From an uncultured virus (IMG/VR IMGVR_UViG_3300025922_000001) (taxonomy: Duplodnaviria; Heunggongvirae; Uroviricota; Caudoviricetes): DNA of 64,000 bases. The notes beneath the pieces were generated by a model. It ran no database searches. It worked only from the letters and a program-made list of their open reading frames with translations, and was not told where the DNA came from. A program made the translations under genes and the position numbers. The DNA lies in the IMG/VR virus record IMGVR_UViG_3300025922_000001, one strand, 5' to 3'. This document shows positions 3,554-60,280 of the stretch, piece after piece; position 1 is the stretch's first letter; each line of letters opens with the position of its first letter.

Positions 3554-4789
3554 CTAGACAGTAACAGGTTGGCGTACAAGTTGTACACTAGCGGGGCGAT
3601 GAGATTCTTTCTTGATCAACCATTCACGGTCGCCAACGAGCTCGCCACCATCTGGACCTCGTTCACCGTCCAGTGCAGCCTTGGCTTGCTCGCCGATCCA
3701 TCGACCACATTGGGTTGAAATCCCCTTGCCCCAGGTCGCCTTCAGTGTTGCATTGTGACGAAGTGGATAGATGTTCCAGTCATCCGGGAAACCCATGATG
3801 CGTGCAACTTCACGGTGAGAGATGAAGCGGTTTTGCGTGGGGTGGAGTACGAGGTCCAGTGCACCACCCGTGATAACGCGTGCTGATCGTGAGTTGTCCC
3901 ACCTCGTCACCGAGATGAATCCCATGTGGAAATCCTTGCGAAGAAGCTTCTCCTTCATGTAGTCCCACGATGGAGGGAGCTTGTTGTACTTGTTATAGAA
4001 GTACTGAGCGAACCTGCCGACGTGCCAACTCTGTGGCCAGACCTCACCGTGTTGCAACCCCAGGTGTAGCAGGTCGAGAGTCCGTCGATGCGCGACGCCT
4101 GTCCGCGTTGTATGCCCGTCTACGCTGCTGGTTCTCTCGCGAGGCTTCTCTGACCACCAGGAGGCAGGTTGCCGATAGGGCTGCGGAAGCCAGGTCTGAG
4201 GGAGGTTCTCGATGTCACCAATGATATCGGGCAAAAGTGGCACTCTGATGCTCGATGGGTACTCAACACTGAACGGAAGCTGTGATGCCACCCAGAAGTA
4301 ACGCTTACGAACTGCCGCACCGCCAAGTTCGAGTGCATCGTGCATCACGTGATAAAGCCCGTACTTGAGTCCGCTCTTTTCCTCAAGATTCGCACGAAGC
4401 TCTTGCATGAGGACACGACCCTTGGAGTACGCCGGACGCACAGACTCCATAATGACGATTTGCGGCTTCATACGTGCTGCGTAGTCGGAGAGTGCCCACA
4501 TACACTCGCTGACCTTGGCATCAACACCACGATGCTTCTTGTCCGTCATTACAGACCAAGCAGAGCAAGGCGGGTTAGAAGTCAGCACTTCAGCATCTTT
4601 CACGATCCACGTTTTTGGGTCACCGACTTGCGAGGTCCAGTGTTGCCCGAGCACACCACGATTCGCTAGGCAGTTCGGCATACCGAAACCGCCCTTTTGC
4701 TCCACTTTGTGCACAAGTTCGAAGCCCGCCTCGACCATGCCGACGTCAAAGCCGCCCGCGAAGGTTTGTGACGCGACGAACTTATACAC
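3554..4789 (-). CDS. C5 cytosine DNA methyltransferase-like protein (divergent)
   Basis: FAGGF motif I-like, SNPPCSAWS catalytic PC, MESV (for ENV), R.RYF, RFISHREVARIMGFPDDW, GKG motif X-like. Confidence 0.8.
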   Translation of the reverse strand: MYKFVASQTFAGGFDVGMVEAGFELVHKVEQKGGFGMPNCLANRGVLGQHWTSQVGDPKTWIVKDAEVLTSNPPCSAWSVMTDKKHRGVDAKVSECMWALSDYAARMKPQIVIMESVRPAYSKGRVLMQELRANLEEKSGLKYGLYHVMHDALELGGAAVRKRYFWVASQLPFSVEYPSSIRVPLLPDIIGDIENLPQTWLPQPYRQPASWWSEKPRERTSSVDGHTTRTGVAHRRTLDLLHLGLQHGEVWPQSWHVGRFAQYFYNKYNKLPPSWDYMKEKLLRKDFHMGFISVTRWDNSRSARVITGGALDLVLHPTQNRFISHREVARIMGFPDDWNIYPLRHNATLKATWGKGISTQCGRWIGEQAKAALDGERGPDGGELVGDREWLIKKESHRPASVQLVRQPVTV

Positions 4790-4797
4790 GCTTACTC

Positions 4798-5394
4798 CTA
4801 AATATTCCTGCGTGACTGACCGCAGTAGACTTGGCGACTTACGTTATTAGGATCTGTCGCGGCGTAGCAATCAACCGTGTCTGCATAATCACGTGCACAT
4901 CCAGGACACGTCACTTCAGTGTTGACGATGAACATATCTGTCTCGCCGCAAAATGCAGGCGTGCCACTTACACGAGGCTCGGCAGGCGTGCAGATGAGAA
5001 CATCCTCGTAAGCACGCTTACAGCCAGGACACTTCGTTGACACGCCGTCGTACGTGCCACTGGACATGCGATCCCGGTTCACCTGCTGCTTGGCCTGGTA
5101 GGCAGCCTGCCACTCTTCGTCGGTGATGCCGATGGCGGTGAGAATGTTGGCCAAAAAGTGGCCAACGTCAACTGCTTCCTTCAGCGCGAGTTCACGATTG
5201 ACCCAACCGCGTGGTTGCGCCCAGGTCTTCCATCCAAATTCACTGAGGAGTTCGCCAGCCTCAAGCACGAGTGCCGAGTGATTCCACGTCACATAATCAG
5301 CGAGTGCATCACCCTCAGGAAGCGGAAGTTTAAAGCCAAACGACTTTTCCTGGAGTTCCTTCGTCGAAGCGAGCCACTCCCAATTGTCACTCAC
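4798..5394 (-). CDS. all-alpha dNTP pyrophosphatase (dimeric dUTPase/dCTPase-like) with C-terminal Cys-rich repeats
   Basis: E.GELL.E.GWK.W and KEAVDVGHFL motifs, Y.AK...N..R; GTG start overlaps upstream stop. Confidence 0.75.
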   Translation of the reverse strand: MSDNWEWLASTKELQEKSFGFKLPLPEGDALADYVTWNHSALVLEAGELLSEFGWKTWAQPRGWVNRELALKEAVDVGHFLANILTAIGITDEEWQAAYQAKQQVNRDRMSSGTYDGVSTKCPGCKRAYEDVLICTPAEPRVSGTPAFCGETDMFIVNTEVTCPGCARDYADTVDCYAATDPNNVSRQVYCGQSRRNI

Positions 5395-5980
5395 TTGCGA
5401 TCTTCTCCTCGTACTTCTCGTGAAGCGTTCCACCTGGGTGATAAGACCCAAGTTGTTCAGTGGTGAGTGCATCAGCGACATTACAGACGAGCGTGTTGAG
5501 GATCGCCAACTGGACCGCCACCGATACTGTAGGAATGGTTCCGTGCTTTGAACCATCCTCATCGATTTTGTACGTTAGTGCGATATTACACCGCTCAGCC
5601 AACTCACTTTGATGGTTACCCGTTACCGCTGCAGTGATGATGCTTCCATTACTGCTGTGCAATTCAGCAATGTGTTGTGCGTCAAGCACCTCCTCAGTCT
5701 GTCCAGAGTGGCTGATGAAGATAATGACGTTGCGATCAATCCGCGAGATCGTCCCGAGGCCACCGTGTAGAAAATCAGTGGTGTGGATTGCGGAAGCGTG
5801 GTAACCCACCGATTGCAAGAGTGACGCGCCTAGCTGCGCTACTCCAAACGACTTACCAACACCAGTAAGTGTCACAACACCGGTGAGTTCGATGCGTTCA
5901 CGAAGTTGCTTGACAACTTTATCATCGATATTGTACTCGAGCTGCCTAAGCGCATAAATCGTCTTGCTGATGACGTCCAC
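5387..5980 (-). CDS. SIS-domain sugar-phosphate isomerase, KdsD/GutQ (arabinose-5-phosphate isomerase)-like
   Basis: TGVGKS, HGGLG, ISHSGQTEE, PTVS and HPGGTL motifs. Confidence 0.85.
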   Translation of the reverse strand: MDVISKTIYALRQLEYNIDDKVVKQLRERIELTGVVTLTGVGKSFGVAQLGASLLQSVGYHASAIHTTDFLHGGLGTISRIDRNVIIFISHSGQTEEVLDAQHIAELHSSNGSIITAAVTGNHQSELAERCNIALTYKIDEDGSKHGTIPTVSVAVQLAILNTLVCNVADALTTEQLGSYHPGGTLHEKYEEKIASE

Positions 5981-7488
5981 TAGCCCACAATCTCCTTAAT
6001 CAGTTGAACACCGCGTGAAATCATGACTTCACGTTCACGCGGACTGTGGAGTGGTGCACCCGCGAGAAGAAGGCAACCTTCAGCGACTTGAAGCTGTTCA
6101 AGCGAAAAGTATCCCTCAAGAAACTCATCCATAGCTTTGATTTCATCAGCACGATCAGGCATCAGCACATTGTCATTATAGAACAAATTGTGTGTGATCG
6201 CTGAGAATCCGGCATGGTACGAGTACCGCAACTTCGCGATCTCATAGATCAGCGGCATGAACGGTGTGCCGCGTGGATCTACAAGCTTGCACGTACCTGT
6301 GTTGATGGAGTAAAGGATGTTGTTGAAGTTCAAATCACCGTGCGCACGCACCATTGATGCTGAGGTAAACACCTCACTTGCGCGCTCAAGCAAATCAAAA
6401 TGACGCGTCGCGAGCGCGTGATCAAGAGTGGTGAGTCGCTCAAGTGCTTTACCTGCGAACCATGATGCCACCCGAACTGCACTTGCAACTTCGTTATAAG
6501 ACTTGATTGACCACCATAGATCATGATCAAGACGGTCGGTCACAGACTGGAGAATCTGGACCCACGTATCGGGCCTCCCAGGCCAGTAGAGCCACAGTTC
6601 TGAGAGCGTAGGTAGATCGACGTACTCCATCGCATACCCACCGTCGAGTACACTACCGAAGTACCTCGGAATGAGGTTTGCCGACCTGTCTCCCATGGCC
6701 GATTGCTCAATCAGCCAATTTCGCTGTGCTGCGAACTGCTCTCCAGTGCCTCTCTTCGTAATAATACCTGCATCATCTAGTGAAAGCGTGTGCTCAGACC
6801 GCGCGATGAATCGGGTTCGACGTGCAATTGCGAGAGCGTGCACATCGCCAATGTCGAGCCACGTTGGAAACGCAATGGTTCTCGCAGTAGGGAAGCACGA
6901 GAGAAGTGGTCCCATGCCCACTTCATGCTCGTCGTTCAAGTTGGCGCGTGTCATTACCGTGCTGGCTTCACTGAGTAGCTCGATGGTGTCGGCAAAGTGG
7001 TATGCGCCAATGGTAACTGAATCCGCTACACGCACCTGCTTATCGACATACGTGCCATCATCTTCGCGCACACAAAATGAACGACTACCAACTGGTGTAA
7101 GTGCTTCACCGATCCACGTTCCCGAGTGTCGATCAAGCTTTTCCTCGATGAATGTGTCACTCATCAGAACGTACGTGTCGTGCTTGTGACGCTCTGGGCC
7201 CAATGCGTGCAGGCCTACGAGGATTGCATCCACCGGACCACGTGAAACGTTTTGCGGTACGACCTTGATGTCGTAATGCCCAGCGCGCTCGAGTGCAGTC
7301 TGGACCTGGATGTGCGTGGCCGGATTTGCCACGACGATGATGCGCACGCAATTAGCGGCACGCATCAACTCGATTTGGTGAAAGAGGTGAGGACGTTGGC
7401 CGATGGAAACGAGTGCTTTGCTGATCTGTGTTGAGAGCGGTCCGAGACGTGATGCCTTACCGCCGGCGAGAATGATTCCGTTGCTCAC
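5980..7488 (-). CDS. sugar nucleotidyltransferase fused to an APH/choline-kinase-like domain
   Basis: IILAGGKASRLGPLS..SKALV N-terminus, WLDIG; C-terminal HGDLNFNNI and LVDPRG. Confidence 0.85.
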   Translation of the reverse strand: MSNGIILAGGKASRLGPLSTQISKALVSIGQRPHLFHQIELMRAANCVRIIVVANPATHIQVQTALERAGHYDIKVVPQNVSRGPVDAILVGLHALGPERHKHDTYVLMSDTFIEEKLDRHSGTWIGEALTPVGSRSFCVREDDGTYVDKQVRVADSVTIGAYHFADTIELLSEASTVMTRANLNDEHEVGMGPLLSCFPTARTIAFPTWLDIGDVHALAIARRTRFIARSEHTLSLDDAGIITKRGTGEQFAAQRNWLIEQSAMGDRSANLIPRYFGSVLDGGYAMEYVDLPTLSELWLYWPGRPDTWVQILQSVTDRLDHDLWWSIKSYNEVASAVRVASWFAGKALERLTTLDHALATRHFDLLERASEVFTSASMVRAHGDLNFNNILYSINTGTCKLVDPRGTPFMPLIYEIAKLRYSYHAGFSAITHNLFYNDNVLMPDRADEIKAMDEFLEGYFSLEQLQVAEGCLLLAGAPLHSPREREVMISRGVQLIKEIVG

Positions 7489-8819
7489 AGATCGAGTCGC
7501 CTCTCAATGGTAGTGACACAACGCTGACGTTCGAGTTCACGCTTGAAGTGTTCGTACTGGACCCTCGCCAGCCACTCGTACGTGGAACGCGATGTCTTGA
7601 CTGCCTGGACCTTACGTGCGAGATCAGCAGGATCTTTGATGCGAAGCCACTTGTGCAAGTTGACCATGTCATCTGAGTAACGATCACCGTTGGGGAACAG
7701 AATATGATCCTGCGTGTCATAGAGTGGGTGAAAGAAACAGATGATGCCCGTGGCAAATGATTCCCATGGCTTTGCTGTCGCCCATCCTGATCCAGAGGAT
7801 GGGGTGGTGAAGGTGCACTTTGTCGTCTGCATCAAGTTGAAGATTTGGTTGTATGGGATTGGGTTGATTTCGGTGTTGAGCTTTGCTAGCGAGTCTTTCG
7901 ACCAGGTGCCATGAACCCAAGAAGGTCCGAGTGGTCGAACGTAGTGTTCCATGGCATGGAGTCGAGTGAGTTCGGGTCGCATACCATAGTTGCGTGCCTC
8001 GTTGATGAGGATTCCGAAATCGTGATCTCGATCTTCCCACCCGGCTGGAGCTTCCTCACCAAATCCTCGAGGAATCCCGACGAGTTCGAGTCCGGATCCC
8101 ACGTAAGTATCAGTCGTTCGCCACCGCTCTCCCATACCTTCGGCTCGTGCGTTAAACGTATCGAAACCGTGTTCTTGGGGAGTCCTAGTGTCGCCATAAC
8201 GCTCATTCCACTCGTCACGGGTCCAGTCGAACTGGCACAACACGGGATGACGCCGAGGCCACGCAAGATCACGAGACTTCAAGTAGTTGCGAGCATCAGG
8301 AAGAAGCCATACTTCCTCACGCTTTAGAGGATCAACATCACGCCACCGGTTGATTCCACGTGCAATGAACGACACGTACTCAACGAATGAGATTTGTGGG
8401 CTCGTGACGACGTTGCGGTTGTCCACCCTGGGAATGGGCGAGTTGCTTGTGCCGTGCTGTCCAAGCCAGAACACCATGCCATCGAGTGAATCGAACGTTG
8501 GGCCGGTGACACGGTCTAGCCGATCGATGCGATCTTGCAGTGATGCCTTTGCGTGAGAGCGTGCTTCGGCTCGCCACTCTTGCCACGGATTCGTGATGTT
8601 AGGCATGTGTGGCGCCCAACCGGAGTTCTTTCCGACGACGACGAATTCGACGTCAGGATTGCGAGTGGCTAGTTGCTCAAGTAGATACGGCGGCTCATTA
8701 TCTCCACCGGATTCACCCCACTTTTTCGGGTTAATCTCAATGACTCGTCCTAGCTTCCCATACCCAACACGCTTACGAAACGTAGGCATACAGTTCGTCC
8801 TTTCCGAATGATCTGTCAA
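7485..8819 (-). CDS. GT-B-fold glycosyltransferase-like protein, candidate nucleotide/DNA base sugar transferase
   Basis: GGDNE N-terminal motif; C-terminal TAKPWESFATGIICFFHPLYD; translationally coupled to sugar-nucleotide genes. Confidence 0.6.
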   Translation of the reverse strand: MTDHSERTNCMPTFRKRVGYGKLGRVIEINPKKWGESGGDNEPPYLLEQLATRNPDVEFVVVGKNSGWAPHMPNITNPWQEWRAEARSHAKASLQDRIDRLDRVTGPTFDSLDGMVFWLGQHGTSNSPIPRVDNRNVVTSPQISFVEYVSFIARGINRWRDVDPLKREEVWLLPDARNYLKSRDLAWPRRHPVLCQFDWTRDEWNERYGDTRTPQEHGFDTFNARAEGMGERWRTTDTYVGSGLELVGIPRGFGEEAPAGWEDRDHDFGILINEARNYGMRPELTRLHAMEHYVRPLGPSWVHGTWSKDSLAKLNTEINPIPYNQIFNLMQTTKCTFTTPSSGSGWATAKPWESFATGIICFFHPLYDTQDHILFPNGDRYSDDMVNLHKWLRIKDPADLARKVQAVKTSRSTYEWLARVQYEHFKRELERQRCVTTIERRLDL

Positions 8820-8949
8820 TTCCTCAACGCGCAGCGGGGCCTGACGTCTTGTGGCTACTCACGTCAGCTTACGTTCCACCAAGTAGAGCGCACTCTTGCT
8901 ATGCGATGCATGAGGCATTATCGGCGTGGAAACCCCTACGCAGATCGTA

Positions 8950-9630
8950 CTAGATGGGCATCTCCGGCGGAGGCGGCGAGCTATCCGCAGGTGCGGAGAC
9001 CTCCTCAGCAGACGGTGCCGGCTCGACCGGGGCAACTATCGGCGTAGCAGCCGGAGGTGCCACCGGGGCAGGCTGAGCCACCGGAGCGGGCGGCTGAGCC
9101 GGAGTCGGCGGCGCGACAGGCGCAGGAGGTGCAACCGGAGCCGGAGGTGCAACCGGACCAGACGAGACAGGAGGTGCGATAACGGGACCGGCGCTTGGCA
9201 TCCCCGCGACGGGCGCACCGGTGTAGGGCTTCACGCCCTTGACCTCATTGCGCATTTCACCGCCCCACTCCTTTTGGCCCAAAGTGAGACGAGCACGACG
9301 GCCAGTGAGAGCACCAGCGACAGGCTCGAGACTTCCAGCCGGACCAAGCTGTGCGAAGAACTCATCGGTGAGACCGAAGCACTTCATCTGACGGAAGAAG
9401 ATCGAGACAGCAATCGCATTGTCCAAGGAGAGCACGAAGTTGTTGATGATCGGACGGTTCATATGCGGGCCGGAGATGACCTTCATCTTCGCCTTGAGCA
9501 TCGGCTTGCCGTTGCCCGACGTCACAGCATCACAGGCGGTGACTTCGATGTCGTAGTCACCGTTGGGAAGAGGTTCGAAGCTGACTGTCTTCGCATCAGC
9601 AAGAGCCTTGCTGAAGTCAATCGTGGTCAT
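8950..9630 (-). CDS. DUF669-like single-stranded DNA-binding protein, Pro-rich tail
   Basis: FEPLPNGDYDIEV...TSGNGKPML...RNEVK; adjacent to Sak4-like ATPase. Confidence 0.75.
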   Translation of the reverse strand: MTTIDFSKALADAKTVSFEPLPNGDYDIEVTACDAVTSGNGKPMLKAKMKVISGPHMNRPIINNFVLSLDNAIAVSIFFRQMKCFGLTDEFFAQLGPAGSLEPVAGALTGRRARLTLGQKEWGGEMRNEVKGVKPYTGAPVAGMPSAGPVIAPPVSSGPVAPPAPVAPPAPVAPPTPAQPPAPVAQPAPVAPPAATPIVAPVEPAPSAEEVSAPADSSPPPPEMPI

Positions 9631-10475
9631 ACGATGAGCTCCTTAGTTGCGACGGGTGCCACTGTATCAACCGCTGGCTGCACGTCAAATACGATGTTCA
9701 TCCAGTTCGTGATGTCATTTCCAACCCAGTGTCCATCAGTTTTGACGATGGTCTGAAAGTTGCCCAGTCTCCCCTGGACCCGCTCACCGCACGAGTACTG
9801 TGGGTGAGGACCGATCCAGAGACGGCGAACCTCTTTAGTGGGTTGCCCGTTTGCGTCGAGTTCCCAGTCTGGGTACAAATAGCCGCACACATCGACCCAG
9901 TATGGAAGAGACACGGAAATCTGACCCTGCATATATGGCTCCCACTTACCAGAGCCATTTGCTTGTCTTGTCTCAGCGATGAACATCACGCATCGTGTGT
10001 TCAAAGCAGGCACAAGCGCGAGATCACGAAAGCCGCGAATGACTGTGTCCATCTGCATAAGCAGTGCACCCCAGTCCTGCATCTTCATCTGCTCACTACC
10101 GACCAACTGAGTCTTGCAGCGACGCTGAATCTCGGTGATGGAGTCGATCACCACCGACACGAAAGGCGTGATGTACTGGGTGAGCCAGTTATACACAAGC
10201 TGCACCGTGCCCCAGTCACGCACATTGACGATGCATGCTTCCCATGTGCCATCGTACACGGGTGGCCCACCGGTGGAAGGATCCCAGAAAACCTTCTTCA
10301 CCGGAATGAAACGCCAGCTGCCCTCAGCGTCAAGAACAAGCACGGGCTTCGGCGCAGTAGAAGACAGGGTCGACTTACCCATCTTTGAAGGGCCGTGAAT
10401 CAACAGTGATATGCGCTGATCGGTACTGTACGACATGGGAGGATCAATAGCGATGGGAATGCTTGTCTCAGTCAT
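9627..10475 (-). CDS. AAA_24/Sak4-like ATPase recombinase
   Basis: LLIHGPSKMGKST, LVLDAEG, VVIDSITE, QDWG. Confidence 0.85.
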   Translation of the reverse strand: MTETSIPIAIDPPMSYSTDQRISLLIHGPSKMGKSTLSSTAPKPVLVLDAEGSWRFIPVKKVFWDPSTGGPPVYDGTWEACIVNVRDWGTVQLVYNWLTQYITPFVSVVIDSITEIQRRCKTQLVGSEQMKMQDWGALLMQMDTVIRGFRDLALVPALNTRCVMFIAETRQANGSGKWEPYMQGQISVSLPYWVDVCGYLYPDWELDANGQPTKEVRRLWIGPHPQYSCGERVQGRLGNFQTIVKTDGHWVGNDITNWMNIVFDVQPAVDTVAPVATKELIV

Positions 10476-10984
10476 ACACGCCTCTTACGCCGGTTATTTG
10501 CCTGCTGCTTTGCCGTGGCCCATCGTATGTTTCCAGGAAAATATCCATTTTCGTTTTCAATGCGATCAATGGTGTAGCCTTTACCAGGATGTGCACCAAT
10601 TGATGACATAAGATATTCATAAAATGACACGAATGATACTTGCCATTCTTCGCACATTCCACGCTTGGTGTAATCAGGATTGTGCTTAAAACGCTTTCTC
10701 ATCTGCAACCAGGTACGAAATTCTAGCGTCATTGCGCGTTTACCATCAACAAAAGCCGTGTGTCCGTGAATTCGATGCTTGTTATGACGTGTTTCTCGGT
10801 TCAAGCAACCGCATGAACGCGATGCGCCAATGCGTAGTTTTTGCTGTTGCACACTAACTTGCGCGCCACATTCACATTGACACAACCAACGAACTTTTTT
10901 CGCACGGTCTGGTGGATCTTCTGCGCGTGCGATAACAGTAAGACGTGTAAATACTTGTCCTATGAGATTCTCAGCAGTTCTCAC
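10472..10984 (-). CDS. HNH-type homing-endonuclease-like protein
   Basis: GQVFTRLTVI, WLCQCECG, SCGC, TIDRIENENGYFPGNIRWAT..QQANNRR; AT-richer than neighbours. Confidence 0.8.
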   Translation of the reverse strand: MRTAENLIGQVFTRLTVIARAEDPPDRAKKVRWLCQCECGAQVSVQQQKLRIGASRSCGCLNRETRHNKHRIHGHTAFVDGKRAMTLEFRTWLQMRKRFKHNPDYTKRGMCEEWQVSFVSFYEYLMSSIGAHPGKGYTIDRIENENGYFPGNIRWATAKQQANNRRKRRV

Positions 10985-12372
10985 TGAGTGTCCCGGCCCT
11001 TCTTGTCGTAACGGTCACGCGGGTTGTTCTGCTTGTAGAGCGCATCAAGCATATCATCTGCTCCACTGGATCCATCATCGAGCATATTGCAGATGGCCGA
11101 GAAATCACACGACCAAGAACAATCGCCATTGGGCGTCGGGTACACAATATCGAGATGGTGTTGCCCGCGGTCCAGTGCGTCGATTGTTTCAAGCACCTCA
11201 CGGGTTATTGCGATCAAGCGACGTCGATAAGACTCGAGTTCGTACGGGTTGTGCCTCACTTCAATGCGATCGTAGAACGGTGGCTTGGCCTTGGCACTTC
11301 GCTTTACACGACGAAGCATGTTGTAAAGAGCACCATCACAATGCTCTTCACCTTCTTTTGACGCCAGCATTTCCAAGATGTGATAGTGGAGCATCTGTTC
11401 GTTTTGCGGAAGCGTGAGAATGGGGGCGGTCAGAGATCCCACAGTCTTATGGTCAATGAAGACCCTAATTCCATCGGTGACACGATATGCCCGGGTATCA
11501 AGAAGACCGATCAGTTGCACCTCACGTTCATCACTTGCATCACGCATTGGAACGGTGATGTCCGCAACGAGTGGAGTTTCTGACGCGATGATGCGAAGAT
11601 CTGAGTCAGCACCAGTTTCTTCAAGCCACTGGACGTATCCCTCCACCATTGCACGCTCGAGGTTGCAACTCGCTGAAAACTCGGTGGCGAACTCAGCAAG
11701 ACGTTCATCGGTGGCATCGCGCTCTGCGGCGAGGTTCCTGATGGACGTCCAGTCTTCGACGATCACACGTTCAAGTGCATCACGTGGATCGACTCGCTGC
11801 TCACCTTCGGGAACATACCACGCTGCCAATGCACGGTGAATGCGTGTGCCAGTAGAGCGCACTCCGGTGTAAGATTCGGTCTTCAGCGTGAGTTCGCGGT
11901 ACCAGCCAAGCCACCACTTACGCTTACACCGCTTGTATGTCTGGAGTTCGGAGTTCGAGATTCGGTAGACACCGTCCTGGGCTTCTGGATACGGGTCAAT
12001 AAGGGGCAGAGCGTAGTGGTAGAGCTGCGCGCCTTCCTCAGCCGGCAACACCTGTGCCAGGGTATCTTCGGTGTCATCGGGGAGGTCTAGGGAGGACAGC
12101 ATGATTGGGCCCGAAGGGGGTGGTGGCAACTTTGGCACCGTCGTCTTAAGTGGTGCTTTTGCGGCAGGGCCGTTCGCTACGATGTCATTGAGCGCACGCG
12201 CAACTCGATCACGATCGCCTGGCTTCCACGAGTCTTTCGTCTCGATGTTGTAGAGATGCGCTGTACTTTTTCCTGTCAGTCCAGCAAGAGTGCTGAACTT
12301 CGCACGTGACACCTTGTGTTGAGTACGCACCTGAAGAACGAGTGCACCAGTGAGTTCATCCGCTGCATACAA
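10981..12372 (-). CDS. Cas4/RecB-like PD-(D/E)XK exonuclease with N-terminal HTH-like extension
   Basis: ISNSELQTYKRCKRKWW, GTRIH, G.LD, IDHKT, Q...Y, C.W.C.F..IC. Confidence 0.85.
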   Translation of the reverse strand: MYAADELTGALVLQVRTQHKVSRAKFSTLAGLTGKSTAHLYNIETKDSWKPGDRDRVARALNDIVANGPAAKAPLKTTVPKLPPPPSGPIMLSSLDLPDDTEDTLAQVLPAEEGAQLYHYALPLIDPYPEAQDGVYRISNSELQTYKRCKRKWWLGWYRELTLKTESYTGVRSTGTRIHRALAAWYVPEGEQRVDPRDALERVIVEDWTSIRNLAAERDATDERLAEFATEFSASCNLERAMVEGYVQWLEETGADSDLRIIASETPLVADITVPMRDASDEREVQLIGLLDTRAYRVTDGIRVFIDHKTVGSLTAPILTLPQNEQMLHYHILEMLASKEGEEHCDGALYNMLRRVKRSAKAKPPFYDRIEVRHNPYELESYRRRLIAITREVLETIDALDRGQHHLDIVYPTPNGDCSWSCDFSAICNMLDDGSSGADDMLDALYKQNNPRDRYDKKGRDTQ

Positions 12373-12384
12373 GGGTGGTGTCTC

Positions 12385-14313
12385 CTACTCGTCGACGCCG
12401 ACGTACGGAATGGACGCCAACGGGGTGTTCAAGACAAGCGCTTCTTGCGCATCGATGACAGATGTGTCGGCGTGCGGGTTCGCTGCAAGTAGAGCCGCGC
12501 GATCACGAGTGATTTCATCAAGTCGGTTGAACTTCTCGTGAAGCTTTGTAATCTGGTCTTCCTCGAGCGTGTCCTTCATCACAATGTCGATGATCGTAAT
12601 CGAGTCGTGAATTTCGGAGCCAATGCGGTGGTTGCGGCTTTCCTTCTGGACCTCCGCCACGAGAGACCACGAGCGCTGCAAGTTGATGAGTGTGTCAGCA
12701 GCAGTCATATCAAGACCGACACCACCCGCGGCATTCGTGAAGAGAAGCACCTTGACCTGTTTCTTACGAAGTGCGTCCAGTGAACGCTCACGTTCAAGTG
12801 GTGACACATCACCAGTGATCAACGCATACCGCACACCGAGCTTATCAAGACGCTTAGTTGCGAGGTTGATCAGTTGCTTGAACTCAGCAGCGACGATGAC
12901 AGGCGGTCCATCGTATGATGGTGAGAGGATGCCCTTCTCCTCAAGCACTTCTTCGAATGCATCGAGTTTGGGAGACGGTTCCGCGAGCATGACATCCCAC
13001 TGTGTGATGTCATCAGGGTCGTGCTTCACCATCTTCACAGACGATGATGCGACCTGCATCAAGCGAAGTGATGCCTCAAGATGAGATGGTGCGATGAAGA
13101 GATCACCATCAGGTGTTCGGGTGATGAGGCGACTCTTGAGCTCACCGTACATTTTCGACTGTGATGCGGCCATGTCGACATACCGCGTTTGTCGCACCTT
13201 AGGCGGAAGTTGCGGGAGAACGATAGCCTTAATCATTCGTCGAAAACGAGGATCTAGGAGCTTGAAGAGTTCTTCACGTGTGTCGGGGTTGATGCCAATG
13301 ATGTCAAGTTTTCCGAACGCGTTCCACGCAGCTAGGCAGTAACGTTCCACGAATTGGGACTTAGTTGGAAAATCTTCTGGTGCCACCGCGTGCATGATGG
13401 ACCATAGGTCACCCGGATGGTTTGCGACAGGTGTCCCAGTAAGAGCCCATCGGTACTCAACACCTGGCTGGTGCATAACATGCCAAATGGCACGTGTTTG
13501 CAAAGACTTCGGTTCTTTCACACGATGTGCTTCATCAAGTGTGACGGTGACAAAATTGAAGTCGTTGAGTTCCTTCTTGTGTACTTCACACCGTGCTGTC
13601 GTGAGACCAGCATCACCAAATTTTGGATCGCATGTACGACACTTCTTCAACTTCACTGAACCGAACGGTGCAAGACGCGTGAACGAACGCACCGACTCGA
13701 TGTTCATGAGCACGATGCAATGCGGGTTTTGCTTGGCTTCCTTGAGGATCGCGCGCTTCTTCGCCGCGGTGCCCTCAACATTGTACACGTGTGCGGTGGG
13801 CATCCATTTGCTGACTTCGCGTACCCAGTGTCGCTTTACCGAGTTAGGACAAATGATAAGCGCAGGCAGTGCATTTTTACGTTCGTGTTCATGCGCTAGA
13901 TTAAGAGCTAGCGTTTGAAGACTTTTGCCTGTACCCATATCATCGCCAAGCAGTCCGGAGCCCGCTCGTCGCATGAACTCGACGCCAGCCCTTTGATAAG
14001 GATAGAGGTGCTCATCGAGGCCTGGGATCGCTGGCCACTCAAGCAAGTTACGAACCTCGAGTGCCGGATCAATGCGCTTTCTGCGGATGTCCCAGGCCCA
14101 GTCGATGAGTGCTGGGGTGAGCGTGAATGTCTCTTTGAACACACCACGAAGTGTCACAAGAGAAGCCCAGGTGGGTGGAACGCACCAGATTTTCTTGATA
14201 GGGAGCCACCGGCAACCGGAGACTTTCTTGATCAATTCTTTTTCATTCCACTCAGTGGTGACGGTAATTACTTGCTTACCTTTTTCGTCAACACCAATGT
14301 CACCAAGCGGCAC
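12385..14313 (-). CDS. SNF2-family helicase
   Basis: LGDDMGTGKS, DEAH, LTGTPVAN, GGVGLDMT, Q..SR.HRIG. Confidence 0.92.
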   Translation of the reverse strand: MPLGDIGVDEKGKQVITVTTEWNEKELIKKVSGCRWLPIKKIWCVPPTWASLVTLRGVFKETFTLTPALIDWAWDIRRKRIDPALEVRNLLEWPAIPGLDEHLYPYQRAGVEFMRRAGSGLLGDDMGTGKSLQTLALNLAHEHERKNALPALIICPNSVKRHWVREVSKWMPTAHVYNVEGTAAKKRAILKEAKQNPHCIVLMNIESVRSFTRLAPFGSVKLKKCRTCDPKFGDAGLTTARCEVHKKELNDFNFVTVTLDEAHRVKEPKSLQTRAIWHVMHQPGVEYRWALTGTPVANHPGDLWSIMHAVAPEDFPTKSQFVERYCLAAWNAFGKLDIIGINPDTREELFKLLDPRFRRMIKAIVLPQLPPKVRQTRYVDMAASQSKMYGELKSRLITRTPDGDLFIAPSHLEASLRLMQVASSSVKMVKHDPDDITQWDVMLAEPSPKLDAFEEVLEEKGILSPSYDGPPVIVAAEFKQLINLATKRLDKLGVRYALITGDVSPLERERSLDALRKKQVKVLLFTNAAGGVGLDMTAADTLINLQRSWSLVAEVQKESRNHRIGSEIHDSITIIDIVMKDTLEEDQITKLHEKFNRLDEITRDRAALLAANPHADTSVIDAQEALVLNTPLASIPYVGVDE

Positions 14314-14568
14314 TCACGTTCTCCTAGCTTGCGACGCGAAGTGCGTGACGTCCTGTGGGCTCTTCACGAAGACTCACAGCCCACTCGATGTCGGCTCCGG
14401 TGTGAATTCGATTGAAATACGTGTTGAGTGACTTCTTGTCGATGGCATGCGCAAGGAATGCTGCGATCAAGCTAACTATCCAGGCGGTGATCATTTCCGA
14501 GAGAGACATGTCATAGTCCTTTCCGATATTCCGTGTTAAGGAGAATCTATCAAGCAATTACACGACGG

Positions 14569-15072
14569 TCAGACACCCGAATTAGCAAGCATTGCGTCAA
14601 AAATGGACGCTTTGAAGCGAGCGAGAGCAAGTGTCGCATGACGTCCTGCATCATTTACGTCGTTTGCGTCGGGTAGATTGACTTCATTTGGCGTGGTGTA
14701 GAAGTCCAGTCGTTTGAGCATTTCATTTGTCGCAAGCTTCTTTGCATCAGCAGGCGGCTGCATAACGAGACGAGCATTAAACCGCTCAGCGAAAATCTTG
14801 ACGCTTCCAATCGCTTGGAGAGCGGTTGGCTGTTGCGTACGCTTTCCGGTCTCTGGCGTCACCGTATACCGCTCGCAAGCGATCAGAATGCTCTCTGGAC
14901 TCTCGTCAGACGCACGAAGGGTGCTCTCCAGCCAGTTTACTGCCGTCGAAACGTCAGTCTGGAGGAAGTGTATGCGTTCTGCGTACGTGTTGTGGAGTTT
15001 AAGCGCAAGAATGCCCATGCTTGTACCCGGATCGACACCAATGATGAGGCCGAGAGGTTTGATGATTGTCAT
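14569..15072 (-). CDS. RuvC-like Holliday junction resolvase
   Basis: IIGVDPGTSMG, IACE, DVNDAGRH. Confidence 0.7.
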   Translation of the reverse strand: MTIIKPLGLIIGVDPGTSMGILALKLHNTYAERIHFLQTDVSTAVNWLESTLRASDESPESILIACERYTVTPETGKRTQQPTALQAIGSVKIFAERFNARLVMQPPADAKKLATNEMLKRLDFYTTPNEVNLPDANDVNDAGRHATLALARFKASIFDAMLANSGV

Positions 15073-15074
15073 TG

Positions 15075-16871
15075 CTATTCTACCTCTCCCCAACGTTGCC
15101 CGACACCAATTGATGAAGTGATGGGAACTGTAAGTAGCTGATCGTCATTCATGACGAGTTCAATGGTGCGCATGACGTCATCGAAATCATCATTAGGAAT
15201 GTCAAAGTCGATCTCGTCGTGCACTGGAATTGTCATGTACGGTCCAAGTCCGGCGGCATCAGCTTCCACGATCTTCATCTTAAGAATCTCGCCTGCTGTT
15301 CCCTGGATTTCATAGTTAACCAGGGTGTACAGCTTACCTGCATCAGCGGTGTGCTTACGTCCAGTGAGTGGCGAACGTACATATGCTTCACCGGTCAAGT
15401 TGAGATTGGCACGACCTTCACTCTCAACTTCCTTAATCCATTCGGGGACTCGACTATACATTTTGTCAAAGTCCCGCATGAATTGTCCGGCTTCATCTTC
15501 AGGCACACCTGCGGTCTTAGCAAATTTCGGGATGCCTGCGCCATAGATCTTCGCATAGCCACCGTTCTTAAGCAGCTGCCTACGAGGATCTGCCTTTGTG
15601 AAACTCGGCTCGTGAAAAAGTTGCACACCCATGTTAACGAAGAAGTCACCGGGCGTCATAAACGCAGCAATCATCCCCGGGTCTTGGGACATATGCGCCA
15701 TGACCCGCATTTCGATCTGCCCAAAGTCGGCCTTGGCCCACCGGTGATCAATTGATGCAGTGAAGCAGTTGCGAATTTTTCGCCCGAACTTAGTCCTGAT
15801 TGGGACATTTTGTAGATTAGGGTCACTCATCGACATGCGACCCGTGCGAACACCAGAGCCACCACCAGGCTCGAATGGGTTCTTATCGGTGCCACCCACG
15901 GTGTTGATCGATGGATGGATCTTGCCATCCCACTCCGACATCGTAAGATAGTTTGCCAGGTAGGTCGACACCATCTTCTGCGCACGCCGGCGGTTGAGAA
16001 CAGTTGCTGCTAGCGGGTGGTCAATGCTCTCGAGAACCTCCTTGTCTAGTGAGTATTGACCACCACCGGTCATCTTGGTGAACTCGACTCCGAATGACTG
16101 AAGCTTTTCGATGACCTTTGCATTGGCACCCGGTGAGATGCCGTGAACGTCATGACACCACTTCTCGGCCGACTTCACATATGCATCGAGTTCATCCATC
16201 AACTTTTGCGTGTACTCACGATCGACAACGACGCCTTTGTTCTCCATGCGTCGAGCGACCCATGACACCGCAAGTTCAAGTTCGTATGACTTAGGTGCCT
16301 CAGCCATCACCCGTGGATAGAGCTCGTCCTTGAGCTGCATGGTGAGGATGGTGTCAAGCCCACCATACATCCAATAGGCTTCAAGATCGATCGGCACGGT
16401 GGCCCAGTTCCAGCCACCTGCCTTCATCGCATCGTCCAGTTGATGCTGGAAGTTGCCTGCGCGCCTATCGACCAGACGACGAGTAAGAGTCTTGAGTGCT
16501 GTGGAGCCGGTTGATTCGAGCACGTGCGACATAAGTCGAGTGTCATGACATCTGGACTCAGGCAACGACACGCCGAGAGTTCCTCGGATCATGTCCGCGT
16601 CGTACGTTAGATTGTGCGCGACGAATGTGCCTTGGAATCGTTTGAGCATATCCGCGCCGAATGCACCCCACCCGGGAAAGTCGATGGGAATGCAGTACGC
16701 GGTTTGGCGATCGCCAAATTGGAGGAGCCGAACCTTATCAATAAGTGTGCGCAAACCTGTGCCTTCGGTATCGACGGCAATCTCATCGCACGTCGACATC
16801 CAGCGTTGACACTCCCACGCGGTCTCGATGTTATCGATCAGATGAATGCCCTTGACTTCATCAAGACTCAA
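15075..16871 (-). CDS. polA: family A DNA polymerase with 3'-5' exonuclease domain
   Basis: DTE, HNLTYD; RTGRMSMSDPNLQN, DFGQIEMR, R...K...Y...YG, IQGTAGE, VHDE. Confidence 0.95.
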   Translation of the reverse strand: MSLDEVKGIHLIDNIETAWECQRWMSTCDEIAVDTEGTGLRTLIDKVRLLQFGDRQTAYCIPIDFPGWGAFGADMLKRFQGTFVAHNLTYDADMIRGTLGVSLPESRCHDTRLMSHVLESTGSTALKTLTRRLVDRRAGNFQHQLDDAMKAGGWNWATVPIDLEAYWMYGGLDTILTMQLKDELYPRVMAEAPKSYELELAVSWVARRMENKGVVVDREYTQKLMDELDAYVKSAEKWCHDVHGISPGANAKVIEKLQSFGVEFTKMTGGGQYSLDKEVLESIDHPLAATVLNRRRAQKMVSTYLANYLTMSEWDGKIHPSINTVGGTDKNPFEPGGGSGVRTGRMSMSDPNLQNVPIRTKFGRKIRNCFTASIDHRWAKADFGQIEMRVMAHMSQDPGMIAAFMTPGDFFVNMGVQLFHEPSFTKADPRRQLLKNGGYAKIYGAGIPKFAKTAGVPEDEAGQFMRDFDKMYSRVPEWIKEVESEGRANLNLTGEAYVRSPLTGRKHTADAGKLYTLVNYEIQGTAGEILKMKIVEADAAGLGPYMTIPVHDEIDFDIPNDDFDDVMRTIELVMNDDQLLTVPITSSIGVGQRWGEVE

Positions 16872-17015
16872 CGCTCGCTCCTACTTCATCCAGTCAAGAA
16901 ATCCACGCGCTTGACGCTGCATAGCACGGCGGCCATGCCTACGCCCAAGACCATAGAAAAACGCAATTGCCACGAGAACGATTATGATTTCCACTTAAGT
17001 TCCTATGTTCCTAAC

Positions 17016-17708
17016 CTAGAGAAGTTCGGCGTGCACCTGCACCCCGAGCTGATGAAGTAGACGAGTACCACTGTCGTCACGGTACTGTGCTGCTGCGACA
17101 ACGCGAGTGATTCCCGCGTTCACGATCAATTTAGCGCAATCCAGACAGGGTGCCATTGTCGTGTACAACGTAGCACCGTCGGTTGACACGCCATTCTTCG
17201 CGGCGAATGCGATAGCATTGGCCTCGGCGTGTACGCTGAATCGGCAAGGTTGCCTTGAGTTGCAGTCAGCCCAATGGTGCTTGGGATCAGGGTTCGTCGG
17301 AAGCTTTGTGCAGTCGCATGCGTGATTGCAGTGTGGAAGTCCGGTCGCGGTGCCGTTGTATCCACTGGACACTGGTCTCGTCTCAATGACGATGACAGCA
17401 CCGACCTGCGCGCGTGAGCAGGTGGCACGATCGGCCATCAGCTTCGCCATTTGCATGAGCGTCTGGTCCATCGAGGGACGGGTCTTTTTCACAGGCAACT
17501 TGGAATGTTCACGAAGTGCTGCGATGGCAGCTGTGCGGGTTGTGCAGAAGAATGGAGACTTGTATCCTTGCACCGAACTCCATGCGTAGTGCTTTTCTTT
17601 TGCACCACTTGGCAATATCACGTTGACTTGCCACACGAAACCGATTGGCTTCGTCTGCGCATCATCTTCATAGATGCGTTGTTCGTTGATGTTATCTTCG
17701 TCACTCAC
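17016..17708 (-). CDS. dCMP deaminase
   Basis: RATCSRAQVGAVI, GYNG, HAEANAI, PCLDC. Confidence 0.92.
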   Translation of the reverse strand: MSDEDNINEQRIYEDDAQTKPIGFVWQVNVILPSGAKEKHYAWSSVQGYKSPFFCTTRTAAIAALREHSKLPVKKTRPSMDQTLMQMAKLMADRATCSRAQVGAVIVIETRPVSSGYNGTATGLPHCNHACDCTKLPTNPDPKHHWADCNSRQPCRFSVHAEANAIAFAAKNGVSTDGATLYTTMAPCLDCAKLIVNAGITRVVAAAQYRDDSGTRLLHQLGVQVHAELL

Positions 17709-18574
17709 GCTGACACCACGTTTTCATTGGGAAGAAGTGTTTCGATCAGGTCGAGCTGTTTGGTGTACCATGGGTTGGCTTCATCTTCCTCCTGCGTGGT
17801 GTTGCCTTCAAGGAGATATGCTGCGACGTCCAGTGATGATGTCGCACGATCTGCTGAGCACACACCAAGTGGCAGATCGATGAATACGAAATCAGTTGGT
17901 GCATGAAGCTTGCTCGCTGCTTCGATGTCACGCTCGTAGATGTGCAGACTCGTCGTGTGATGCACGTATCTGCCTACTGGCATGTGCAGTTCGTATGCAA
18001 TGGTGTGTTGAAGTTGCGTGAACATAAAGAAGTCATACGGTACACCCAACCACACGTCTTGGCTGCGCATATGCGTGTGCATTTCGAGAGCTGGAAAGCC
18101 GTGACCACTTTCACGGATGAGGAACTGAAAGAACACGGTGCACGGCTTGTCACCGATGTGCCGTAGGTCAGCCTTGGTCCAGATGACTGCGATGGCTTGC
18201 CTACTGGACGGATCCTCCTTGAGGAGTTCGATGCAATCCGCAAGTTGCTGCACCACGCGAGGTCCGTAAGCGCCGTAGTCGGGATCCGTAGCATCTACCA
18301 GGACGTTTTCGAACGTCGGAGCGGCTACCCTGACCAAATCAGAGCGTGGAGTTCCAGAGATGAGCTGGAGCGCTTCAAGTGCCGCAAGCTTCAAGTTCAC
18401 ACCGCGGCCAACACCGACTGGAAGCAGTGGCTCAAGGGTGTTGGGAACAATCAACGTCACTGCAGTGAGTTCGCGCGTGGGAATTCCACGTGCTGAAACG
18501 CTCTCGCCCTTATTGATGATGTGGTTGACCAACTTGACGTAGTCGCCACGTAGGTCGTTCAGCTTCAGTTCCAT
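17705..18574 (-). CDS. thymidylate synthase homologue, probable dCMP-modifying (hydroxymethylase/hydroxylase-type)
   Basis: YGPR, SRQA, PC, MRSQDVWLGVPYD (Asp where dUMP-specific TS has Asn), SLHIYE. Confidence 0.8.
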   Translation of the reverse strand: MELKLNDLRGDYVKLVNHIINKGESVSARGIPTRELTAVTLIVPNTLEPLLPVGVGRGVNLKLAALEALQLISGTPRSDLVRVAAPTFENVLVDATDPDYGAYGPRVVQQLADCIELLKEDPSSRQAIAVIWTKADLRHIGDKPCTVFFQFLIRESGHGFPALEMHTHMRSQDVWLGVPYDFFMFTQLQHTIAYELHMPVGRYVHHTTSLHIYERDIEAASKLHAPTDFVFIDLPLGVCSADRATSSLDVAAYLLEGNTTQEEDEANPWYTKQLDLIETLLPNENVVSA

Positions 18575-19539
18575 CAGAGCCTTTCAACACGATCATAAAA
18601 ATCTGTCCGACCGCGACCGAGAATATCGTTCACGTATGTCGAACCTGTGCTGTGCTTGAAGCGACGAATGAATTGGGGGTGTGACACCGGCCAGTCAGCC
18701 CAGTGCGCAGCTTTGAATGCTTTGCGCCCAAGAGCAACCGACGTAGGCCTGTCGAGCATATGACGTAGAAGATCGATGTCATCCACATCGCATGCGTTAA
18801 CAATACCCATCGAGCGAAGCTCACGGATGTCAGCGTGTCGCGCGAGTGCATTAGTGAGGAAATGTCCAGAGGTGGACTGATACGGCATGAACGCAGGCCG
18901 AGGATCAGATGCAGAAGCATCAGGATCGACATGATGTCGCACGTCACCGATAAGAAGCATGCGCGGTGATGGTGGACCGATATACGTCGTGAATGGATTT
19001 AGCTTCACGGCCGCTGTCGACTCAATGCCTGCACGGTGAATGATTGCTTGGATCGTGTCATCAATCACGTGCCGACCATCCACGTTGACGATAGGCAAGA
19101 GACTTGTCATCGCAACGATCTCGTACAATTCATTGAGTTGATGTCCCTTGCCTGCTTCGATGAGATCATCACCACGACGAGAGATGCACTGATCAAGTAC
19201 ACGATCGTTAGCTGACACGTGCACGATGATGGCACCACGTGAACGCAAGAACATCTCGATGTGAAGACGAACACCGTCATCCATAAGCGTTGGACGGTTC
19301 AACACTGTGGGGTAAACACTTTCACCCCAATGCCAACGATCACAGATGATGTGGTGACCTCGTTGCGGACGATAGTCCAGCAGGGGTGTTTCATACTCGT
19401 CGAGTGGATGTACTTCCGGTGGACCCTTATGGAGAAGAGTCACGGTGTTATCGGGAAATCGCTTCTCGAGTTCACACGCTAGTTTGCTCGCAAGAGTTGA
19501 TTTTCCGCTGCAATCCGGCCCTTCCAATATGATAAGCAT
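18574..19539 (-). CDS. dNMP kinase fused to a UDG-like C-terminal domain
   Basis: IILEGPDCSGKST, ICDRWHWGESVY; C-terminal LLIGD...SG.FL...VALGRKA...HPQF. Confidence 0.75.
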   Translation of the reverse strand: MLIILEGPDCSGKSTLASKLACELEKRFPDNTVTLLHKGPPEVHPLDEYETPLLDYRPQRGHHIICDRWHWGESVYPTVLNRPTLMDDGVRLHIEMFLRSRGAIIVHVSANDRVLDQCISRRGDDLIEAGKGHQLNELYEIVAMTSLLPIVNVDGRHVIDDTIQAIIHRAGIESTAAVKLNPFTTYIGPPSPRMLLIGDVRHHVDPDASASDPRPAFMPYQSTSGHFLTNALARHADIRELRSMGIVNACDVDDIDLLRHMLDRPTSVALGRKAFKAAHWADWPVSHPQFIRRFKHSTGSTYVNDILGRGRTDFYDRVERL

Positions 19540-20092: not shown

Positions 20093-20169
20093 GCGCTCTC
20101 CTATTTAAATCCCGGGTGGGAATTAAAAGAGGGGACCGAGCCTACCCTGGCCCGGCCCCCATAGAAGTG

Positions 20170-60278: not shown

Positions 60279-60280
60279 GA

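Follow-up and report, generated by a model that had tools for sequence, protein, structure and literature searches.

A predicted cytosine-sugar hypermodification module in the replication region of an uncultured actinophage

What might two tightly packed gene groups, which encode nucleotide- and sugar-handling enzymes on either side of a replication module, do for a phage? This question is raised by a DNA stretch of 64,000 nucleotides (nt; hereafter the window) from the IMG/VR record IMGVR_UViG_3300025922_000001, an uncultured virus assigned to the Caudoviricetes. Both groups lie on the minus strand, at 3554-8819 and 17016-19539 in the list of open reading frames (ORFs), and adjacent genes within them either overlap by 1-4 nt, with overlapping start and stop codons, or are spaced by 8 nt. 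Our analysis favors, with a probability of roughly 0.55, a two-stage hypermodification of cytosine that is built into the replication module: judged from active-site signatures, predicted structures and analogy to characterized phages, 5-hydroxymethylcytosine (5hmC) would be made before replication and a D-arabinose-derived sugar would be transferred to it afterwards. That the virion DNA contains a sugar-modified, C5-substituted cytosine of some kind appears highly probable. If it does, the base is probably 5hmC rather than 5-hydroxycytosine (5hoC), and the balance tips somewhat towards a sugar derived from arabinose.

Sugar-coated cytosines are a main way by which phages escape restriction enzymes and CRISPR nucleases, and almost all known cases come from T4-like phages that infect Gram-negative bacteria. 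The WhiB gene at 232-579 of the window points to an actinobacterial host. A search of the literature on actinophages (via hydroxymethylcytosine, dCMP hydroxymethylase, glycosyltransferase, Gordonia phage and DSL-LC01) found no report of such a cytosine-sugar system.

Every gene that a previous reading of the DNA letters (the sequence-only reading) had named is present where it was placed and has significant Pfam or PHROGs family matches. The exception is the putative transferase at 7485-8819, whose Pfam match is sub-threshold, so that its nature as a glycosyltransferase (GT) rests on its fold. The genes between both groups are encoded on the same strand and form, according to Pfam, a replication module of an SSB-like DUF669 protein, a RecA-like AAA_24 protein, an HNH protein, a PD-(D/E)XK nuclease, an SNF2 helicase, a RuvC-like protein and the DNA polymerase PolA. 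With 3554-8819 as query, megablast gave no match among 50,697 phage records. The closest record to the window is a 36-kb IMG/VR fragment (G001) that is identical across this region, and the nearest named relatives by similarity of the thymidylate synthase (TS) homologue are the Actinomycetia phage DSL-LC01 (39.9% identity) and the Gordonia phages GodonK and Phendrix. All three share with the window the gene order Tmk, TS, deaminase, PolA, RuvC, helicase, nuclease and RecA-like. Coordinates and family matches are collected in Table 1.

The predicted base and its nucleotide enzymes

In an alignment with E. coli ThyA, T4 gp42 and RB69 gp48, the TS homologue of the window has E58, L143D, C146, H147T, D169 and N177D (E. 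coli numbering). This signature is identical to that of T4 gp42 at all of these positions, whereas RB69 gp48 has F at E58, L143E, D169N and N177D. The aspartate of the motif GVPYD, which the sequence-only reading had assigned to the column of E. coli N177, is indeed found there, and the catalytic cysteine (C146) is retained. The protein scores under every NCBIfam thymidylate-synthase cut-off, which fits a diverged function. N177D has been described as a sign of dCMP use, an acidic residue at 143 as a sign of a non-methyl (hydroxymethyl) product and D169N as the mark of flavin-dependent 5-hydroxy-dCMP synthases (PMC13326640, cited here and below from the part of the paper available to us). In RB69, the arabinose sits on 5hoC, a base produced by a D169N TS homologue (PMC13326640). 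The D169N exchange, which is diagnostic of synthases of the RB69 gp48 and DLP3 gp80 type, was not found in the window enzyme, which has Asp where RB69 gp48 has Asn. Since D169 is kept, the predicted acceptor is 5hmC and not the base of RB69.

The combination L143D/C146/D169/N177D was found in 38 of the 39 TS homologues of related loci, some of which are duplicates of one phage; the remaining one is truncated. By its residues, the TS homologue is therefore predicted to be a dCMP hydroxymethylase of the T4 gp42 type. The earlier proposal that it acts on dCMP is borne out to this extent, as N177D and L143D argue against a dUMP methylase, and the separate ThyX that had been proposed as source of dTMP was confirmed by matches to two families. 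A TET/JBP-type route, by which 5mC is oxidized to 5hmC, was not indicated, since no such family occurs among the Pfam matches of 23 + 140 window ORFs, which is a weak negative.

In the first stage of the proposed pathway, the gp56-family pyrophosphatase would convert dCTP (and dUTP) to the monophosphates, and the TS homologue would use methylene-tetrahydrofolate to turn dCMP into 5-hydroxymethyl-dCMP. The YorR/Tmk-like kinase would then form the diphosphate and a host nucleoside diphosphate (NDP) kinase the triphosphate, and PolA, which would need to accept modified dCTP, would put 5hmC into DNA. The supply of dTMP would be kept separate by the dCMP deaminase and ThyX.

The pyrophosphatase shares its Pfam family PF08761 with T4 gp56, and BLASTP between the two gave a local match (E 1e-6) over 41 amino acids (aa) of the catalytic domain. 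Its matches in the PDB are weak, to dimeric dUTPases and DCTPP1. The ORF is open up to 5562, in a stretch overlapping the SIS gene, and the true start is likely near 5394. Its C-terminal approximately 80 residues contain two CPGC...C zinc-ribbon-like motifs; T4 gp56 is shorter (171 aa).

The predicted 5-hydroxymethyl-dCMP kinase consists of two parts. Its model has a predicted local distance difference test (pLDDT) score of 88.3, and residues 1-191 align to YorR (2axp) with a Z of 17.9 in VIA-align. The C-terminal approximately 130 residues (177-308) align to members of the uracil-DNA glycosylase (UDG) superfamily, namely UdgX (6ail; Z 11.1, root-mean-square deviation (rmsd) 2.8, 120 aa) and the UDG of T. 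maritima (1l9g; Z 11.0). An atlas search with this half had left all UDG leads below 0.9, and the later fold search supported UDG. The pattern VGD...PAFMP...NAC...HPQ is conserved in the UDG-like half in an alignment of 18 sequences, and the same alignment shows that the fusion itself is conserved within the clade. We know of no description of a kinase-UDG fusion adjoining a dCMP hydroxymethylase. The annotated 'thymidylate kinase' of DSL-LC01 has 331 aa, which is similar to the length of the window protein. YorR is also the structure reported in Table 1 of PMC13326640 for the 'nucleotide kinase' of DLP3, which is located beside its TS homologue.

The transferase, the proposed sugar donor and the Dcm-like enzyme

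The second stage would start from ribulose-5-phosphate, which the SIS enzyme would isomerize to D-arabinose-5-phosphate (A5P). The kinase half of the fusion protein would phosphorylate C1 and its nucleotidyltransferase half would form an NDP-arabinose-type donor, from which the GT-B enzyme, resembling T4 beta-glucosyltransferase (BGT), would transfer the sugar to the hydroxyl group of 5hmC in DNA. Dephosphorylation at C5, for which no phage gene is present here, would be carried out by a host enzyme or skipped. As the outcome, the DNA would be shielded from restriction enzymes and other nucleases. Among palindromes of the window, no 6-mer is strongly depleted (lowest z -2.1), and the depletion of CATG (z -5.7) and of GATC (z -3.7) is mild.

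The fold search of the 7485-8819 protein, which the sequence-only reading had suggested as a check, placed it structurally closest to a DNA-modifying enzyme. The model, built from an alignment of 38 sequences, reached a pLDDT of 90.6 and a predicted template modelling score (pTM) of 0.89, and entries of T4 BGT are its top Foldseek matches in the PDB (E 9.2e-9). VIA-align likewise ranked T4 BGT (1j39) on top of 997 aligned chains (Z 21.5, rmsd 3.6, 307 aa). The next family scored Z 18.4, the BshA/GT4 enzymes 17-18 (other GT-B at most 17.9), T4 alpha-GT 17.5 and the GT of phage HY126 17.1. Among the predicted viral structures of BFVD, the match at rank 2 is named 'DNA beta-glucosyltransferase'. 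At the sequence level, however, the GT has no match to PF09198 at E ≤ 0.01 (T4 BGT itself scores 325 bits), and hhalign of the GT profile against T4 BGT is not significant (probability 14%, E 0.0019). No PHROG or NCBIfam match was found either, and although the family comprises 709 metagenomic homologues, a precomputed Pfam domain is present in 0 of the 120 listed. Since the sequence link is not significant, we claim no membership in the BGT family at this level; the GT is described as an enzyme that works like BGT and is not classed as a member of its family.

Of the arabinose-donor set known from RB69, which the sequence-only reading had described as an isomerase, a nucleotidyltransferase and a kinase, all three parts have matches in the window. 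The SIS protein is predicted from its sequence to be a D-arabinose-5-phosphate isomerase. It shares 27% identity with RB69 gp55 (E 3e-14), including the C-terminal HPGG, and its top four matches in the PDB comprise 5uqi (E 1.8e-15) and 3etn, both phosphosugar isomerases, along with 3fxa, a SIS-domain protein, and 2xhz, the arabinose-5-phosphate isomerase of E. coli. GmhA is absent among its 8 PDB matches. The structures 5uqi, 3etn and 2xhz are cited as A5P isomerases in PMC13326640. The fusion protein matches RB69 gp53 with its residues 1-231 (BLASTP E 6e-6) and RB69 gp52 at the HGDxNFxN...DPRG catalytic loop of the kinase (BLASTP E 5e-6). Its N-terminal half has PDB matches of the RmlA type, and the atlas look-alikes of residues 236-502 are clusters of the APH family (score 0.98).

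What was not found is a phosphatase of the AfhF type. According to PMC13326640, AfhE of HY126 phosphorylates A5P at C1, AfhF removes the phosphate at C5 and AfhE then forms UDP-arabinose. RB69 gp51 has itself no Pfam match, and tblastn with positive controls is therefore the better test for AfhF. Within the 64-kb window, tblastn with RB69 gp51 gave a best E of 0.24, and no HAD motif I was detected in ORFs of at least 60 aa. No match was obtained in 5 related records, including a 93-kb genome that is 98% complete and in which the HAD_2 and PNK3P profiles were also negative. Judged from this relative, the whole genome would be about 30 kb longer than the window that was covered. As positive controls, Enterococcus phage 9183 (E 1e-12) and Pseudoalteromonas phage XG4 (E 6e-11) each gave a homologue, which in both phages immediately precedes the fusion gene. 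In the relative G006, an ORF of 153 aa that precedes the GT was considered as phosphatase and rejected, as its HAD_2 motif match has only 12 bits and BLASTP shows it to be similar neither to RB69 gp51 nor to the UDG-like domain.

The last gene of the first group encodes a Dcm-like enzyme. Its alignment with M.HhaI and M.HaeIII includes motifs I, IV, VI, VIII and IX, with ESV as motif VI and PPCS as motif IV. Across 49 unique homologues, conservation reaches 90% or more for the elements FAGGF..G, NPPCS, ESV, R.RYFw, RE.ARi.GFPD.W and WGKGI, from which we conclude that the enzyme is probably active; against TIGR00675 it scores below the cut-off (43 vs 100.65). It belongs to the module through conserved linkage, its gene lying beside the dCTPase-like gene throughout the clade, and the proposed pathway gives no step for it. 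One could speculate that it methylates residual cytosine, acts before replacement is complete or catalyzes a different C5 chemistry.

Related loci, known systems and rival explanations

A profile search yielded 75 related viral loci, the gene content of which was determined by tblastn; many of them end at contig edges. The GT is found in all 75 within the replication module, between the SSB-like and dCTPase-like genes. SSB-like and RecA-like genes were detected in 70 loci, the Dcm-like gene in 57, the dCTPase-like gene in 56 (54 with the window query, 56 when combined with the MazG of DSL-LC01 as query) and the TS homologue in 39. GT, Dcm-like, dCTPase-like and TS homologue occur together in 30 of the 75. 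A complete 66-kb relative with terminal repeats has the Dcm-like gene, a gp42-type TS, the kinase, a 153-aa ORF, the GT, the nucleotidyltransferase-kinase fusion and PolA contiguously. DSL-LC01, which has the gp42-type TS residues, possesses a UDP-galactopyranose mutase and different GTs where the window has the arabinose genes, and gave no match to the window GT profile.

The GT and dCTPase-like genes are separated by 0-3 variable genes. Pfam assigned the 57 ORFs of this slot to NAD-dependent epimerases/dehydratases (21), RGP/STELLO-like proteins (10), NTP_transferase (6), SIS (2), APH (1) and dUTPase_2 (1), and 16 to no family, six of which are BLASTP homologues of the RGP-like group. The content was scored in the 55 loci with a complete GT-to-Dcm interval. 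An RGP-like gene with an epimerase occurs in 16 of them, an RGP-like gene alone in 13, an epimerase alone in 8, a separate kinase and nucleotidyltransferase in 7, the window's type (SIS and fusion) in 5, two of which are this same phage, and a nucleotidyltransferase alone in 3, while 3 contain nothing. At least some GTs of the family must therefore use a donor of the host. On a quick maximum-likelihood tree of 56 GTs, the cassette type changes 10 times, compared to a mean of 34.9 after shuffling; since related phages share both GT clade and cassette type, this result shows clustering and not co-evolution. RGP/STELLO-like proteins are present in the slot of 29 of the 55 complete loci (L015-L081), often together with a NAD-dependent epimerase. 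PF03214 is the family of plant UDP-arabinopyranose mutases, and the slot proteins could provide a furanose donor as a mutase or act as a further transferase.

These observations lead us to a tentative view of the whole actinophage clade, which we consider somewhat less likely than not. A fixed core of gp42-type hydroxymethylase, kinase, dCTPase-like enzyme, BGT-like GT and Dcm-like enzyme might be combined with a repeatedly exchanged 'sugar slot', giving variously glycosylated 5hmC DNAs. In the window phage the product might be arabinosyl-5hmC or a phospho-arabinosyl form that has never been seen, and the Dcm-like enzyme might catalyze a further step of the pathway. Arabinosyl-5hmC is the base that was once claimed for RB69 and has since been reassigned.

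The comparison with T4 shows likeness in the active-site signature of gp42, in the Pfam family of gp56 and in BGT as the nearest solved fold of the GT. T4 also has a dCMP deaminase. However, the window phage would make its own donor with isomerase and kinase/nucleotidyltransferase, whereas T4 uses UDP-glucose of the host, and its GT lies outside the BGT family by sequence. Moreover, its kinase is YorR/Tmk-like with a UDG-like fusion and not gp1-like, its dTMP comes from ThyX, its module includes a Dcm-like enzyme and its host is an actinobacterium.

With the Afh systems of RB69, DLP3 and HY126, as far as these are described in the available part of PMC13326640, the window shares the A5P isomerase, the layout of the bifunctional nucleotidyltransferase/kinase, a Tmk-like kinase beside the TS, a GT-B enzyme and a dCTPase-like enzyme. 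It differs from them by keeping D169 and E58, which predicts 5hmC rather than 5hoC, by lacking the AfhF/gp51 phosphatase and by having a single GT in the operon; this GT is structurally nearer to T4 BGT than to the GT of HY126. Rhizobium phage RL38J1 (Pootjesviridae), with galactosyl/glucosyl-5-hydroxycytosine, resembles the window in that a sugar-nucleotide enzyme of the phage, a UDP-galactopyranose mutase, feeds a DNA GT, but has a D169N 5hoC synthase where the window enzyme is of the gp42 type (PMC13326640).

Enterococcus phage 9183 encodes Tmk, a gp42-type TS, a dUTPase-like enzyme, an AfhF-like HAD protein, the nucleotidyltransferase-kinase fusion and a GT of the window's family in one operon. 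Its fusion is 21% identical to that of the window over 98% of the query, and its GT matches the profile with E 1.5e-13. It differs by the AfhF-like protein (detected as above with RB69 gp51), and in the 15.6-kb stretch examined, tblastn found neither a SIS isomerase nor a Dcm-like gene. The matches of the TS homologue in VPE25 and VFW are near-identical to those in other Enterococcus phages of about 86 kb, the size of 9183. DNA of VPE25 and VFW has bisulfite-resistant cytosines and withstands EcoRI and MspI, and the hmC-dependent PvuRts1I cuts it (PMC4999554, available part). By analogy, these two phages give the closest experimental backing for the view that a gene set of this kind yields glycosylated DNA of the hmC type. 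Their group (VPE25, VFW and 9183; Denvervirus group) differs from the window phage by its Firmicute host, and the sugar was assumed to be glucose (PMC4999554). Pseudoalteromonas phage XG4 combines within 8 kb an AfhF-like gene, the fusion, a GT of the window's family (profile E 3.7e-32), a Dcm-like fragment match and a MazG-like gene. As inferred from these comparisons, the window system would consist of the base chemistry of T4 and the sugar supply of RB69 minus one RB69 step, plus the Dcm-like enzyme, the kinase-UDG fusion and swappable sugar genes.

Several points weigh against the proposed pathway. The phage is uncultured and known here from its sequence alone, from which we infer the pathway. 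The similarity of the GT to T4 BGT is not significant in sequence, and the DNA acceptor of the GT is deduced from fold rank and linkage. The rule that separates D169 from D169N is empirical and comes from the tested set of one paper, which in its available part includes no actinophage enzymes (PMC13326640). The substrate specificity of the pyrophosphatase is not readable from its sequence, so that dCTPase is a predicted role, and the SIS protein matches KpsF/GutQ of NCBIfam with E 4.4e-21, which is below the cut-off. As no AfhF-type phosphatase was found in the window or in the 98%-complete 93-kb relative, the donor route is incomplete as encoded. Finally, if all cytosines are replaced, it is not obvious what the substrate of a conserved and apparently active Dcm-like enzyme would be.

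The missing phosphatase is also an argument for an alternative in which the same pathway uses a sugar other than plain D-arabinose, either by an NDP-arabinose-5-phosphate or other pentose or ketose donor, or by an NDP-sugar of the host with the cassette product feeding into a second step. The controls of the phosphatase search were positive, the SIS matches stay under the curated cut-offs, and the three loci without cassette gene show that some GTs of the family must take a host donor. Nevertheless, we regard this alternative as unlikely, since the SIS protein has the cited A5P isomerases and one SIS-domain protein as its four best PDB matches, its match to gp55 includes HPGG, the layout of the fusion equals that of the HY126 enzyme described as converting A5P to UDP-arabinose (PMC13326640), and the GT clades track the cassette type. 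The resemblance of the donor genes to those of RB69 could be taken further, so that the TS homologue would be a flavin-dependent 5-hydroxy-dCMP synthase and the product arabinosyl-5-hydroxycytosine; a Tmk-like kinase adjoins the TS homologue also in RB69, DLP3 and RL38J1 (PMC13326640). This is very improbable in view of the Asp at position 169, which the window enzyme shares with all 38 complete homologues of the clade, and of E58, which is kept here and is Phe in RB69 gp48.

It is also conceivable in principle that there is no hypermodification of DNA. In that case, the dNTP pools would only be adjusted by the TS homologue, kinase, deaminase and pyrophosphatase, the Dcm-like enzyme would simply methylate DNA, and the GT and sugar genes would act on something else, such as virion proteins or the host envelope. 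Actinophages are known to glycosylate virion proteins. At 58893-63703, the window has a further sugar locus, which includes two GT2 enzymes, and the UDP-galactopyranose mutase of DSL-LC01 was read by its authors as an auxiliary gene for the cell wall (PMC10611076, available part). We give this explanation little credence, because N177D/L143D speak against a dUMP methylase where ThyX already supplies dTMP, the best structural match of the GT is the DNA-modifying T4 BGT, and the GT lies in the replication module in 75 loci, in one relative directly flanked by TS, kinase and PolA genes. The proposal of a deoxycytidine with an NDP-pentose-derived sugar is thus supported by the TS signature, ThyX, the GT fold and the RB69-like donor genes, and is refined in two respects, since the predicted base is 5hmC and not that of RB69, and the AfhF step is missing.

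If two-stage glycosylation of 5hmC is indeed what these genes provide, soil actinophages would have a modular version of cytosine hypermodification, with T4-like base chemistry, RB69-like sugar supply and sugar genes that are swappable among relatives. It would add arabinosyl-5hmC or its phosphorylated form, a base so far undemonstrated in nature, and offer a natural series of DNA glycosyltransferases that differ in donor specificity and would be useful in 5hmC labelling chemistry. It may also help to explain odd behavior of the DNA of such phages in cloning, restriction mapping and nanopore/PacBio base-calling, and would draw attention to the conserved Dcm-like enzyme and the kinase-UDG fusion as parts of such a pathway that call for an explanation.

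Features of the window

Table 1. Features of the window discussed in the text, with strand and family matches
Position	Strand	Feature	Match
3554..4789	-	Dcm-like enzyme with C5-pyrimidine methyltransferase fold	DNA_methylase PF00145 E 1.4e-20, 74 bits vs cut-off 22
4798..5394	-	All-alpha NTP pyrophosphatase (dimeric dUTPase / T4 gp56 family), predicted dCTPase/dUTPase	dUTPase_2 PF08761 E 1.7e-8; phrog_18650 E 6.8e-30
5387..5980	-	SIS-domain sugar-phosphate isomerase, predicted D-arabinose-5-phosphate isomerase; single domain, no CBS pair	SIS E 1.6e-11; phrog_5670 'arabinose 5-phosphate isomerase' E 7.9e-22
5980..7488	-	502-aa fusion of N-terminal sugar-1-phosphate nucleotidyltransferase and C-terminal APH-like sugar-phosphate kinase, AfhE / RB69 gp53:gp52-like	NTP_transferase PF00483, residues 4-119, E 3.4e-16
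7485..8819	-	GT-B glycosyltransferase, 444 aa, predicted DNA (5hmC) glycosyltransferase	Predicted fold; sub-threshold Glyco_trans_1_2 (23.8 bits vs 25)
10472..10984	-	HNH endonuclease, between RecA-like and PD-(D/E)XK genes	phrog_374 E 1.4e-45
15075..16871	-	Family A DNA polymerase with 3'-5' exonuclease, between both gene groups in conserved module	PF00476 E 4.1e-69; PF01612
17016..17708	-	dCMP deaminase	PF00383 E 1.5e-25; phrog_174 E 2.9e-53
17705..18574	-	Thymidylate-synthase-superfamily enzyme, predicted dCMP hydroxymethylase (T4 gp42 type)	Thymidylat_synt PF00303 E 4.4e-26
18574..19539	-	Nucleotide kinase (YorR/thymidylate-kinase-like, residues 1-~178) with UDG-superfamily domain (~178-308), predicted 5hm-dCMP kinase	phrog_761 E 2.1e-12; YorR in PDB E 1.6e-7
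20755..21492	-	DUF7873 protein	DUF7873 E 2.6e-76
23095..24273	-	RtcB RNA ligase	PF01139 E 2e-115
26103..28466	+	Primase/helicase, at strand switch	PrimPol-D5_N-DUF5906
31248..31934	+	ThyX, flavin-dependent thymidylate synthase, independent dTMP supply	PF02511 E 3.9e-48; TIGR02170 161 bits vs cut-off 87.9

The HNH endonuclease gene is present only in the two of the 75 loci that are identical to the window, and looks like a recently inserted homing endonuclease. The second sugar locus, on the plus strand, reaches the end of the window and encodes, besides its two GT2-family glycosyltransferases, a 229-aa ORF, a dTDP-glucose-4,6-dehydratase-like short-chain dehydrogenase/reductase, a class I methyltransferase and an NDP-sugar dehydrogenase; its products may glycosylate virion proteins or add further sugars.

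tRNA genes are located on the minus strand at 1222-1668 and 20169-20241. They were called as tRNA-Glu(ttc), tRNA-Met(cat) and tRNA-Arg(tct), together with an odd tRNA-like call at 1598-1668 that is read with a two-base anticodon loop. The combination of tRNAs with RtcB, as present here, is often linked to tRNA repair during infection. The C-terminal 36 residues of an ORF at 53051-53500 on the plus strand match the family of the RecBCD inhibitor gp5.9 of T7 (PF25708, E 1.8e-9).

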